Positions 2,313 through 4,596 of a stretch of DNA of 4,609 bases are shown piece after piece; positions within the stretch are counted from its first letter, which is position 1; the number at the start of each line of letters is the position of its first letter. The position numbers and the translations under genes were made by a program. The notes below the pieces were generated by a model. It was not told the DNA's origin. It worked only from the letters and a program-made list of their open reading frames with translations, and made no database searches. This stretch comes from a virus (Duplodnaviria; Heunggongvirae; Uroviricota; Caudoviricetes), in IMG/VR virus record IMGVR_UViG_2534681705_000011. The stretch is one strand, 5' to 3'.

Positions 2313-2317
2313 ATGAA

Positions 2318-2797
2318 TTAAATGTTTTTATAATAACTCGCTTTTTCGTTAAAATTATTTTTGTTTTCTCTGGATGGAGAACTTACGTAGTTTTCCCATG
2401 CGCTATACGTTTTGATTAATGCTTCTCGCTCTGTAGGTGATTTTGTGTTTGCCTTGAGTTTTTCAAATGGTTCTTTTGCTGCATTTAAAACGATCATCAT
2501 TTGCTCGATGTCGCAGTCAGCGATTGCTTTTGATATATCGGGATCCCAGCCAACTCTCACTAACATATCTTGCTTGCTGGAAGTAATAAATTGTGTAGTG
2601 TTGATTATCATTTCTCCCTTATATAGAAGCTTTAAAAAATTATTTTTGTTAACTTGCTGGGGCGTGTTGTCCAAGGTGATATTTTCGCATTTCTTTAAAT
2701 ACGCATAATGATCACTATTTCTGTTTTCTGCGGAAGATTGAGCCGTACACCCTGTAATGATCAATGTACTTAATAATGTCAATGCTATTTTTTTCAT
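2318..2797 (-). CDS. Lipoprotein of unknown function, encoded by an AT-rich insertion (moron)
   Basis: 159 aa. The N-terminus MKKIALTLLSTLIITGC is a signal peptide with a lipobox (ITGC), and the residue after Cys is Thr, not Asp. The gene and its upstream region are visibly AT-rich (2341-2400 is about one-third G+C by hand count) against GC-richer flanks. It converges on Q. Confidence 0.8.
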   Translation of the reverse strand: MKKIALTLLSTLIITGCTAQSSAENRNSDHYAYLKKCENITLDNTPQQVNKNNFLKLLYKGEMIINTTQFITSSKQDMLVRVGWDPDISKAIADCDIEQMMIVLNAAKEPFEKLKANTKSPTEREALIKTYSAWENYVSSPSRENKNNFNEKASYYKNI

Positions 2798-2873
2798 ATG
2801 GGCCTGCTTGTGAATTATCGTACAAGAAAAGTTCGACTAAATTTTATCGTAAAAAGACATCGCCGAACAGATG

Positions 2874-2901
2874 TTTACAATCGTAAAAAATCAAATATGC
2901 T
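2874..2901 (+). promoter_or_regulatory. Candidate sigma-70 promoter, possible late (PR'-like) promoter relocated downstream of the insertion
   Basis: TTTACA (2874-2879), 16-nt spacer, TATGCT (2896-2901). The hairpin plus T-run at 2933-2955 lies about 30-50 nt downstream of the predicted start, the promoter-then-terminator arrangement used by Q antiterminators. By eye only. Confidence 0.3.
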
Positions 2902-2932
2902 GTTAAGAGTGGTTACTTCGCCACACAGCTTA

Positions 2933-2955
2933 AACCCGCCGCCAGGCGGTTTTTT
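2933..2955 (+). terminator. Intrinsic terminator-like hairpin with T6 run (candidate tR'-like terminator)
   Basis: CCGCC (2936-2940) pairs with GGCGG (2945-2949) around a GCCA loop; flanking A:T pairs are possible; TTTTTT follows at 2950-2955. No + strand gene ends just upstream. Confidence 0.5.
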
Positions 2956-3078
2956 GTGTCCGAAAAACGGCGCAGTACGTTAAACGTGCTGGTGGTTGCG
3001 AATACCGGTCTTTCAGCTTGCTGGCTTTTTCGACAAGAGTTATTGGTATGTCACGTTAACCAGAAAAGGGAAAAAGAC

Positions 3079-3273
3079 ATGCTAAAACAGCAGGATATGA
3101 CCGAAACTGCCAGAGTGGTATTTAATGAATTAAGCGTCACCGAACCGGCGACCGTCGGGGAGATTGCGCAGAATACTTACCTTTCACGCGAACGCTGCCA
3201 GTTAATACTGACCCAGCTTGTTATGGCGGGTCTGGCAGATTATCAGTTCGGTTGTTACAGACGTCTTCCGTAG
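3079..3273 (+). CDS. Small winged-helix DNA-binding protein (PapI/FaeA-like)
   Basis: 64 aa from ATG at 3079, preceded by AAGGG (3066-3070). The segment VVFNELSVTEPATVGEIAQNTYLSRERCQLILTQLVMAGLA follows the PapI/FaeA winged-helix pattern (T-x-E-I-A ... S-x-x-x-x-R ... L-x-x-x-G). The longer ORF-track version (GTG at 2956) has an implausible N-terminal extension crossing the terminator. Confidence 0.6.
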   Translation: MLKQQDMTETARVVFNELSVTEPATVGEIAQNTYLSRERCQLILTQLVMAGLADYQFGCYRRLP

Positions 3274-3426: not shown

Positions 3427-4038
3427 ATGGCTAATACTGTAAAAATATCCAGTTGTGAGTTAATCAACGCTGATTGCCTGGAATTTATCCAGACCTTACC
3501 GGAAAATTCTGTCGATCTGATAGTCACAGACCCGCCATACTTTAAAGTGAAGCCCGAGGGCTGGGATAACCAGTGGAAGGGCGACGATGATTACCTGAAA
3601 TGGCTGGACCGGTGTCTGGCGCAGTTCTGGCGGGTACTGAAGCCCGCAGGAAGTCTTTACCTGTTCTGTGGTCATCGCCTGGCATCTGATATCGAAATCA
3701 TGATGCGTGAACGCTTTAATGTGCTGAACCACATTATCTGGGCGAAGCCGTCCGGACGCTGGAACGGATGCAATAAGGAAAGCCTGCGGGCGTATTTCCC
3801 GGCAACAGAACGCATTCTGTTTGCAGAACATTATCAGGGGCCATACCAGCCCAAAAATGACGGCTATGCGGCAAAGGGGTGCGAGCTAAAACAGCACGTC
3901 ATGGCCCCGCTGATTTCTTACTTTCGTGATGCGCGTGAATCACTGGGAATAACGTCAAAACAGATAGCGGAAGCCACCGGAAAGAAAAACATGGCTTCTG
4001 GTTTGGACCAGTCAGTGGCAATTACCGAACGAGGGTGA
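3427..4038 (+). CDS. N6-adenine DNA methyltransferase (beta class), N-terminal part carrying motif IV DPPY; reading frame interrupted
   Basis: DPPY at residues 35-38 (nt 3529-3540) within DLIVTDPPYF, followed by an HTH-like segment LGITSKQIAEATG. The frame ends at TGA 4036-4038 while the rest of the enzyme continues in the +1 frame. Confidence 0.8.
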   Translation: MANTVKISSCELINADCLEFIQTLPENSVDLIVTDPPYFKVKPEGWDNQWKGDDDYLKWLDRCLAQFWRVLKPAGSLYLFCGHRLASDIEIMMRERFNVLNHIIWAKPSGRWNGCNKESLRAYFPATERILFAEHYQGPYQPKNDGYAAKGCELKQHVMAPLISYFRDARESLGITSKQIAEATGKKNMASGLDQSVAITERG

Positions 4039-4048
4039 TTACAACAAA

Positions 4049-4471
4049 TTGCAGGCGTTGTTTGCGCGTGTTGCGGCAGAAAAGCATCAGCGAGGGGAAC
4101 TGGAAAAGCCACACCACCAGCTGGTCAGCACATACAGTGAACTGAACCGGCAATATGCCAGCCTGCTGGAAGAGTACAAATCCCTGCGGCGTTATTTTTC
4201 CGTATCGGCTGCCGTTCCGTATACGGATGTCTGGACGCATAAATCCGTGCAGTTTTATCCGGGCAAACATCCCTGTGAAAAACCGGCAGATATGTTGCGG
4301 CAGATAATTGAGGCCAGCAGTCACCCTGGTGATTTGGTTGCGGATTTTTTTATGGGTTCAGGTTCAACGGTAAAAGCGGCGATGGCACTGGGGCGTTGTG
4401 CGATTGGTGTTGAGCTGGAGACCGGACGTTTTGAACAGACAGTCAGGGAAGTTCAGGATTTAATCGTTTGA
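4049..4471 (+). CDS. N6-adenine DNA methyltransferase, C-terminal part (AdoMet-binding motif I); continuation of the preceding ORF in the +1 frame
   Basis: Contains HPCEKP and DFFMGSGST (FxGxG-type motif I), as in beta-class MTases such as YhdJ (recalled). This frame is open from 3968 (after TAG 3965-3967). The ORF-track start at 4049 is TTG; the first in-frame ATG is far downstream. Confidence 0.75.
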   Translation: MQALFARVAAEKHQRGELEKPHHQLVSTYSELNRQYASLLEEYKSLRRYFSVSAAVPYTDVWTHKSVQFYPGKHPCEKPADMLRQIIEASSHPGDLVADFFMGSGSTVKAAMALGRCAIGVELETGRFEQTVREVQDLIV

Positions 4472-4520: not shown

Positions 4521-4596
4521 GGCCCTTTAGCTCAGTGGTGAGAGCGAGCGACTCATAATCGCCAGGTCGCTGGTTCAAATCCAGCAAGGGCCACCA
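4521..4596 (+). tRNA. ileZ: tRNA-Ile2 (anticodon CAU, lysidine-modified type; ileX/ileZ-like), CCA encoded
   Basis: Cloverleaf built by hand: acceptor GGCCCTT/AAGGGCC, D-arm GCTC...GAGC, anticodon loop CTCATAA (CAT at 4554-4556), T-arm GCTGG-TTCAAAT-CCAGC, discriminator A then CCA. Very close to E. coli ileX as recalled. tRNAscan would probably report it as Met/Ile(CAT). Confidence 0.88.

Follow-up and report, generated by a model that had tools for sequence, protein, structure and literature searches.

The stretch of DNA analysed here, 4,609 nucleotides (nt) of the Caudoviricetes record IMGVR_UViG_2534681705_000011 of IMG/VR and hereafter called the window, comes from a lambdoid Escherichia coli prophage and covers its late-regulatory region, in which an AT-rich block encoding a lipoprotein lies between the gene of the Q antiterminator and the inferred late promoter. 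A first-pass annotation, made from the letters alone, had placed at this point an AT-rich insertion with a gene convergent with Q, and the open reading frame (ORF), the base composition and the blastn borders all bear this out. The features on which the following depends are:

1899/1908 to 2273, plus strand: Q antiterminator gene of the PF06530 type (Pfam PF06530, E = 6e-51; PHROG 79)
2274 to 2868: moron cassette, an AT-rich replaceable block of 595 base pairs (bp), delimited by blastn borders, G+C content (GC) and the alternative cargo found elsewhere
2279 to 2322, both strands: hairpin of a bidirectional intrinsic terminator, core arms 2290-2315 (RNA fold)
2318 to 2797, minus strand: lipoprotein gene with an ATG start, convergent with Q, encoding a precursor of 159 amino acids (aa), MKKIALTLLSTLIITGC followed by TAQ...
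2798 to 2868, minus strand: upstream region of the lipoprotein gene, 71 bp, with a short AGG ribosome-binding site at 2803-2805
2874 to 2901, plus strand: inferred late promoter of the pR' type, TTTACA, 16-nt spacer, TATGCT (promoter scan, conservation)
2902 to 2958, plus strand: conserved initial transcribed region and tR'-type terminator (alignment, terminator scan)

The start of Q in RefSeq is the ATG at 1908, which gives a protein of 121 aa, and the annotation of strain RM11911 calls it an antiterminator Q family protein. The borders of the cassette were mapped by blastn against three E. coli prophages (L004, L005 and L006), which share with the window the Q gene and the block downstream of it and differ in between. 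The homology stops at 2272-2275, that is at the Q stop codon, and picks up again at 2869-2874. The GC of the cassette is 0.355, against 0.496 and 0.487 in its 1-kb flanks; along the window it is 0.32-0.40 over positions 2200-2900 and 0.46-0.60 in the rest. The sharp borders, the deviant GC and the fact that other strains carry different cargo at this site support the earlier view of the block as horizontally acquired. The interval originally given for it, 2313-2930, was right in its location and wrong at its ends: it ran 60 bases into the promoter block (bases 2869-2930 belong, by alignment, to the conserved late-promoter block, outside the insertion) and left out the first 40 bases on the left, with an arm of the terminator.

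We compared the block with the marks of a moron in the sense of Juhala and Hendrix, as summarised in PMC3594210. It is additional DNA separating genes that adjoin each other in related phages, and it is bordered by the stop codon of Q and by the −35 of the promoter block; its base composition deviates from that of the flanks; and it has a terminator of its own, the hairpin at 2279-2322. Judged by its sequence, the block 2274-2868 is a moron, a self-contained and horizontally exchanged cassette that fills, in a lambdoid E. coli prophage, the slot from Q to the late promoter, and we hold its identity and its architecture as a lipoprotein moron with considerable confidence. The hairpin has a folding energy of −26.3 kcal/mol (z = −7.9), and none of 200 shuffled sequences was as stable. 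It lies inside the variable block; on the minus strand the stem is followed by GUUUUAU and ends the lipoprotein transcript, and on the plus strand it stands after the Q stop codon. As to the remaining mark, a promoter of its own working in the repressed prophage, a permissive hexamer scan found upstream of the gene only a modest sigma-70 candidate, TTTAGT (2841-2836) and GATAAT (2819-2814) with a 16-nt spacer (8 of 12 matches), and the candidate −10 ends 17 nt before the ATG.

The precursor has a signal peptide at residues 1-16 (2750-2797), MKK-IALTLLSTLI-ITG-C17, and the mature protein has 143 aa. The sequence conforms to a lipoprotein rule of the PROSITE PS51257 type ([LVI][ASTVI][GAS]C, uncharged h-region, K/R n-region, Cys at 15-35), with the lipobox ITGC, a K/R n-region and Thr at +2, as the first-pass annotation had read it. 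The Pfam model LPAM_1 scores 13.3 bits; low scores are usual for this short model. From the lipobox, the precursor is predicted to be cleaved by signal peptidase II at Cys17 and lipidated there; from the enterobacterial +2 rule, Lol-dependent sorting to the outer membrane is predicted. An AlphaFold2 model built with the family alignment (predicted local distance difference test, pLDDT, 90.6; predicted template modelling score, pTM, 0.81) shows an all-helical bundle of five helices, two of them of 32 residues, after a tether of about 5 residues; no specific structural relative of this model was found among the fold matches. Conservation and the periplasmic location suggest that a disulfide between Cys37 and Cys95 probably staples the bundle. 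According to the model, the mature product would be a 16-kDa helical-bundle domain on a short tether, facing the periplasm. The chance of an open frame of 159 codons in DNA with the composition of the cassette is P ~5e-6 per frame.

The lipoprotein had been described as uncharacterised, and indeed no match to a characterised family was found; nevertheless, it is not an orphan. It matches PHROG 8179 (function unknown) with E = 1e-99 over residues 1-159 and, by tblastn, the 'MorF lipoprotein precursor' of phage phi80 with 36% identity (E = 1e-17, 91% of the length covered); the similarity to the MorF/PHROG 8179 family is full-length, and phmmer gave 14 clusters at E ≤ 1e-10. A word-indexed homologue search found almost nothing, and an exhaustive HMMER search of 1.84 billion representatives was required; it returned 23 clusters, about 21 of which are real, all lipoproteins of 140-172 aa. 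Two long PEGA-repeat proteins, P0022 and P0024, were dropped as spurious, having been matched several times in a low-complexity stretch. The family alignment shows the lipobox cysteine, the near-invariant C37 and C95, the motif ALIxAYSAWExY and a C-terminal YYKN[IM], all of which are present in the window protein. The lipobox rule is satisfied in 19 of the 21 members, and Asp never occurs at +2, where A, S, T or V is found.

The ratio of non-synonymous to synonymous substitution rates (dN/dS), estimated at codon level on 48 pairs, has a median of 0.07 and a range of 0.005-0.20, and the mature coding sequence is identical in independent isolates. By this dN/dS the lipoprotein is functional and constrained, under strong purifying selection; since its homologues are so selected, it is not a chance ORF.

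All the copies that were placed lie in lambdoid phages or prophages of Enterobacterales, so that the survey of homologues suggested in the first-pass annotation found a prophage context for every copy examined, in a slot that varies. The hosts are E. coli, Enterobacter, Pseudocitrobacter, Atlantibacter, Pseudescherichia, Proteus and Providencia; in pattern scans of genome contigs a narrow pattern gave nothing and a second scan gave four Enterobacteriaceae species. Members of the family were found in at least seven different moron slots:

Q/pR', convergent: the window
downstream of a lambda-type Q (PF03589), convergent, beside HigBA: P0004
beside the Gam/Kil/Ant early-left region: P0002
between I and J: the phi80 group
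between K and I: L036
between the tape measure gene (H) and M: L037-L049, L178 and L179
just upstream of the tape measure gene: Proteus

The cassette of the window itself is present in 1 of 5,426 complete E. coli genomes (RM11911), in a few draft genomes and metagenome contigs, and in four IMG/VR contigs. In the RM11911 prophage that carries it the tail genes form a complete set of the lambda type, I and J being direct neighbours, and cassette and Q gene are found together in prophages with different replication modules. In the phi80 record MorF is annotated as a moron with its own −35/−10, a signal peptidase II site and a terminator. The reference phi80 MorF (FN582354, 3950-4408; our L002) ends ...QDFD*, without the last 13 residues (...SKVSYYKNM), which are kept in every wild phi80-type prophage copy (L021-L035, L176) and in all other members; the tblastn homology runs on past the annotated stop. 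On this comparison, the laboratory phi80 MorF may be a truncated and possibly inactive allele.

On the other side of the cassette, an alignment of five prophages with different cargo showed that conservation begins exactly at the hexamer TTTAC(A/G) (2874-2879) and extends over the −10 candidate TATGCT (2896-2901) and an invariant transcribed stretch up to the hairpin and T-run (2936-2955). The core GTTAAGAGTGGTTACT stands at 2902-2917, the terminator stem, a GC hairpin, at 2936-2949 and the T-run at 2950-2955. The same core is found with no mismatches in the K-12 prophage DLP12, between nmpC and essD (L185, 4724-4739), and in at least 80 viral contigs. From position and conservation we infer that 2874-2958 is the Q-dependent late promoter with a nearby terminator, the target of Q antitermination. 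Such a promoter would yield a terminated RNA of about 50 nt, with a sequence almost invariant across prophages carrying different Q alleles and different cargo. In Shiga toxin (Stx) phages a short RNA derived from pR' works as a regulatory small RNA (sRNA; PMC7547250). A literature search on the late-promoter sequence returned no experimental report.

To survey the slot, IMG/VR was scanned for the invariant 16-nt promoter core, which gave at least 80 loci (L055-L134); a Q of the PF06530 type stands upstream in 64 of those listed. Among these listed matches the slot is occupied in 53 of 64 (about 83%), by cargo of 0.6-3 kb, and empty in the remaining 11, where the Q stop codon abuts the promoter; the empty sites carry a more distant Q allele, and an isogenic empty site was not found. 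Of the 53 occupied loci listed, 48 (about 90%) have their largest ORF convergent with Q. The commonest occupant is a Gram-negative porin (Porin_1, 505 bits), found in 22 of the 53, and a lipoprotein of the window type is found in one. The same order is known from E. coli K-12, where DLP12 has quuD, a convergent nmpC, the identical promoter core and essD. The earlier premise of a late promoter that as a rule comes immediately after Q does not apply to this Q/pR' lineage, in which most listed slots are filled. The arrangement in the window is the classical lysogenic-conversion slot of the nmpC type, and its unusual part is the occupant; the element is of an ordinary kind, real and conserved, a new occupant in a known slot.

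Other cargo of the slot includes an NYN-domain protein and an AAA_15/AAA_21 ATPase with a C5 methylase, which are defence-like; in C311 the slot holds an ORF6N gene, in phiP27 a 409-aa gene and in SfII two convergent genes. Uncharacterised convergent two-gene cassettes were also observed, encoding a 271-317-aa protein with a 173-217-aa membrane protein, or proteins of 313 and 153 aa, or of 404 and 391 aa; Pfam gave no match for any of them. The Q/pR' slot looks like an unexplored defence hotspot. ETEC1732 (L004, 2868-3368) and many porcine enterotoxigenic E. coli (ETEC) carry there, in forward orientation, a gene whose small and basic product contains Cys and has a signal peptide, MFKKSLLLTLVMCLLFSSFADA...; the annotated start of this gene lies within the end of Q, and neither PHROG nor PADLOC gave a match for the product. 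A second, unrelated lipoprotein, also convergent, occupies the slot in E. coli PCP06235 (L006, 2948-3394), in phage PhiR40_1 (L053, 1290-1736) and in L094.

Accumulation of cargo after Q is not confined to this lineage. On contig DBDXSC010000024.1 (L182, 6001-8306) a 40%-identical relative of the window protein, P0004, is convergent to a Q of the lambda type (PF03589), with a HigB/HigA toxin-antitoxin pair between the gene and Q and a type I restriction-modification system beyond; this locus indicates that the slot downstream of Q gathers cargo in a second, unrelated Q lineage too. The Q-to-late-promoter interval of the Q/pR' lineage is a heavily used hotspot, with cargo rich in outer-membrane and defence-like genes, and it is useful for mining prophage accessory genes and for the correct annotation of this region.

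The layout of the window suggests how the lipoprotein would be expressed. The gene faces away from the inferred late promoter, lying upstream of it, and is antisense to read-through from the early-right operon; this layout argues for expression in the lysogen from its own promoter. Transcription from that weak promoter would be independent of the Q-dependent late transcripts, or would be switched off once lytic transcription sets in, and on induction the gene would be exposed to antisense read-through from the early-right operon. The convergent bias among the listed slots (48 of 53) fits an insulation of the cargo from lytic transcription. The product would be cleaved, lipidated and transported by Lol to the outer membrane, with its domain in the periplasm. 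The most likely role, as inferred from these features, is that of a lysogenic-conversion envelope protein protecting the lysogen, and the overall explanation that we prefer, a MorF-family moron in an nmpC-type slot encoding a lysogen-protecting envelope protein, appears on balance somewhat probable.

As to the kind of protection, we put forward tentatively, as the leading candidate, an exclusion of superinfecting lambda-like phages acting at a receptor-independent step, e.g. the passage of the tail tip or tape measure through the periplasm. A precedent for exclusion by a moron is gp15 of HK97, a proven superinfection-exclusion moron (PMC3594210). One may go further and regard MorF/PHROG 8179 as an unrecognised exclusion class, in which a helical lipoprotein on the inner face of the outer membrane would block a conserved penetration step of lambda-like tail tips, for instance the exit of the tape measure or the assembly of a periplasmic channel; we consider this extension rather doubtful. 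A receptor-independent block of the tail tip would explain why the family occurs only in phages with H-M-L-K-I-J tail tips, why it tracks the tail backbone over the receptor-binding domain and why it is under purifying selection.

Several observations weigh against the explanation that we prefer. The cassette's own promoter is a weak match to the consensus, and a stricter promoter scan found no convincing site upstream of the lipoprotein ATG; the label of late promoter is positional. Scans of the window protein with Pfam and NCBIfam gave signal-peptide noise at most, PADLOC-DB 2.0 contained no defence-protein model matching it at E ≤ 0.1, and literature searches for MorF and for phi80 morons returned nothing on the family. 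Most members are linked to tail genes, which is possibly just where morons are tolerated. Finally, the cassette is rare in E. coli, so that any benefit it confers is not general.

The role favoured in the first-pass annotation was receptor masking, as with Cor of phi80, N15 and HK022 or Llp of T5, in which an outer-membrane lipoprotein inactivates the receptor used by the phage itself (FhuA, LamB, OmpC, BtuB). Prophage lipoproteins of this kind are known (PMC3594210), the window protein is a predicted outer-membrane lipoprotein, and most homologues stand in tail modules within a few kb of J. A blocker of the phage's own receptor should vary with the receptor-binding domain, and we therefore took 15 phi80-type loci in which J is complete and compared the mature lipoprotein with the C-terminal 250 aa of J. 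Among these loci the identity of the lipoprotein is 94-100%, whereas that of the J C-terminus is 24-73%; in 30 pairs the former is at least 95% identical and the latter below 50%, and between L030 and L031 the values are 100% and 34%. The Spearman rho between the lipoprotein and the J N-terminus is 0.66, against 0.26 for the J C-terminus. This discordance weakens own-receptor masking, phi80 already has Cor for FhuA, and over 10 kb separate the window gene from the tail genes. We regard receptor masking of this type as improbable; the masking of a fixed receptor unrelated to the phage's own may be envisaged. The protein had earlier not been recognised as Bor, Cor, Llp, Lom or a spanin, and this judgement stands: there is no Pfam or NCBIfam match, and the PHROG matches to Cor (PHROG 1119, E 0.14, residues 1-35 only) and to the Rz1-like o-spanin (PHROG 6073, E 0.18) are confined to the signal peptide.

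A role as virulence or host-interaction factor, by serum resistance as for lambda Bor or by an envelope change useful in the animal host, has likewise a low probability in our view. It would agree with a prophage-borne gene which by its layout is independent of the lytic genes, with an envelope-located product, with the porins and the secreted protein carried in the same slot, and with carriers that include gut and animal E. coli, Proteus and Providencia. Against it, no similarity to Bor or to virulence families was found in Pfam/NCBIfam (for Bor, no match at E ≤ 1 in Pfam and none in NCBIfam). Moreover, the family is found only in phage genomes, with many metagenomic viral contigs, and mostly in tail operons, where it would be co-expressed late; and the short tether and lack of a surface-exposure signal suggest that the protein probably faces the periplasm.

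The gene is co-oriented within the late tail operon in most phages, and would hence be made late there, besides its expression from any promoter of its own, which could point to a helper of the phage's own late cycle, blocking the re-adsorption of progeny to debris or modulating lysis. In the window and at the P0004 locus, however, the gene converges on Q and precedes the late promoter, and late transcription cannot express it; in addition, the reference phi80 copy is truncated at its C-terminus, yet phi80 grows well, and the protein shows no likeness to spanins. The window gene, upstream of the late promoter, also lies outside the lysis cassette. A late-cycle helper is, in our opinion, a distinctly poor candidate.

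Still less credit is given to the idea that the protein, like LprI/DUF1311, Pim or T4 Spackle, inhibits a peptidoglycan hydrolase in the periplasm and so protects against host lysozyme, bacteriocins or the degradation of the wall by incoming phage tails. T4 Spackle is helical and periplasmic and has a disulfide, which are features predicted for the window protein as well; 4 of 21 members gave sub-threshold matches to PF07007 (LprI), of which the three that were mapped are in the same register with 12.6-13.7 bits against a cutoff of 22, and one member matches Pim at 15 bits. The window protein itself does not match PF07007. The lead was dropped when profile-profile comparison of the family by hhalign gave a probability of 0.3% against YecT, a verified PF07007 member (64.8 bits), and of 0.8% against a YecT-family profile, a narrow DUF1311 profile built from close YecT relatives only; no relative was found in the PDB with the family profile, and no lysozyme inhibitor appeared among the fold matches.

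That the ORF is non-functional or spurious, in decaying AT-rich DNA, might be suspected from a rare cassette with no annotated function and a weak promoter, but this is effectively refuted by the low chance probability of the frame, the full-length homologues with conserved motifs, the dN/dS of 0.07, the confident model and the identical mature coding sequence in independent isolates.

The remaining features of the window are:

485 to 1534: DUF968 gene
1547 to 1918: rusA
3079 to 3273, plus strand: small conserved gene of 64 aa, PHROG 331 (E 2e-37), context outside the cassette
3427 to 4471: DNA methyltransferase gene
4521 to 4596: tRNA

Upstream of the DUF968 operon, positions 52-133 gave a sub-threshold Rfam match to the Hfq-binding sRNA isrK (27.8 bits against a gathering score of 50, E 0.004), which finishes in a terminator-like hairpin. 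The PHROG 331 protein (64-65 aa), the first gene past the inferred late terminator, is found downstream of every cargo variant and has weak winged-helix signals of the TrmB/MarR type. The methyltransferase gene is broken into two ORFs of 203 and 140 aa, with the break near 3998-4010; in comparison with the intact 348-aa methyltransferase of RM11911 and ETEC1732 the window is without 4 bases and then without 1 base, and the split gene is either a frameshifted pseudogene or an assembly error. The tRNA has the anticodon CAT and is called tRNA-Met by ARAGORN (Rfam tRNA, 72.5 bits). At the equivalent position the tRNA of phiP27 is annotated as ileZ (tRNA-Ile), and Gly or Thr tRNAs are found there in other prophages; by analogy with Stx phages, the CAT tRNA of the window may be a lysidine-modified Ile tRNA.

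If the family does protect lysogens, it would be a mechanistically new exclusion factor, outer-membrane and periplasm-facing, beside the few characterised ones (Cor, Llp, gp15, SieA and Spackle), and phi80 would be a ready genetic system for its study. Since phi80 carries a copy, the family is a clean and tractable target.

The nmpC gene of DLP12 and the porin genes of the lc type have in common with the window the slot, the convergent orientation, the type of Q, the core GTTAAGAGTGGTTACT and an outer-membrane cargo; the nmpC product, however, is a 360-aa beta-barrel porin (Porin_1), unrelated to the 16-kDa helical lipoprotein. The PHROG 3152 lipoprotein of PCP06235 and PhiR40_1 resembles the window gene in slot and convergent orientation; it has 147-148 aa and the lipobox ISGC, and is unrelated in sequence and PHROG. 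This case shows a repeated recruitment of lipoproteins to the slot; it does not show that their functions are alike. Lambda Bor and BorD of DLP12 are also outer-membrane lipoproteins of prophage morons transcribed against the late operon (in DLP12 the minus-strand borD follows the lysis genes), but the Bor slot is after Rz while the window gene follows Q; there is no sequence similarity, and the serum-resistance role of Bor is not transferable.

Cor and T5 Llp are, like the window protein, small phage-encoded outer-membrane lipoproteins, and are expressed for the protection of the cell. The mature domain of the window protein is larger and helical, its similarity to Cor is confined to the signal peptide, and the MorF family shows no covariation with the J receptor-binding domain. 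HK97 gp15, the founding example of a moron, offers a parallel in behaviour: it has its own signals and a deviant GC, is an envelope protein expressed by the prophage, and blocks DNA entry without blocking receptors (PMC3594210). It is a small inner-membrane YebO-like protein, not a lipoprotein, with no sequence relationship, and its function was demonstrated by experiment, whereas that of the window protein is a proposal; its slot, between the tail chaperone and tape-measure genes, is that of the Proteus homologue of the MorF family. MorF of phi80 itself (CBH95072.1), of the same protein family, stands between the tail genes I and J in the orientation of the late operon, whereas the window gene is convergent with Q and precedes the late promoter. 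Both are moron cassettes with a terminator, and their products share PHROG 8179 (2e-74 for MorF, 1e-99 for the window protein), the lipobox, the two cysteines and the ALIxAYSAWExY motif.

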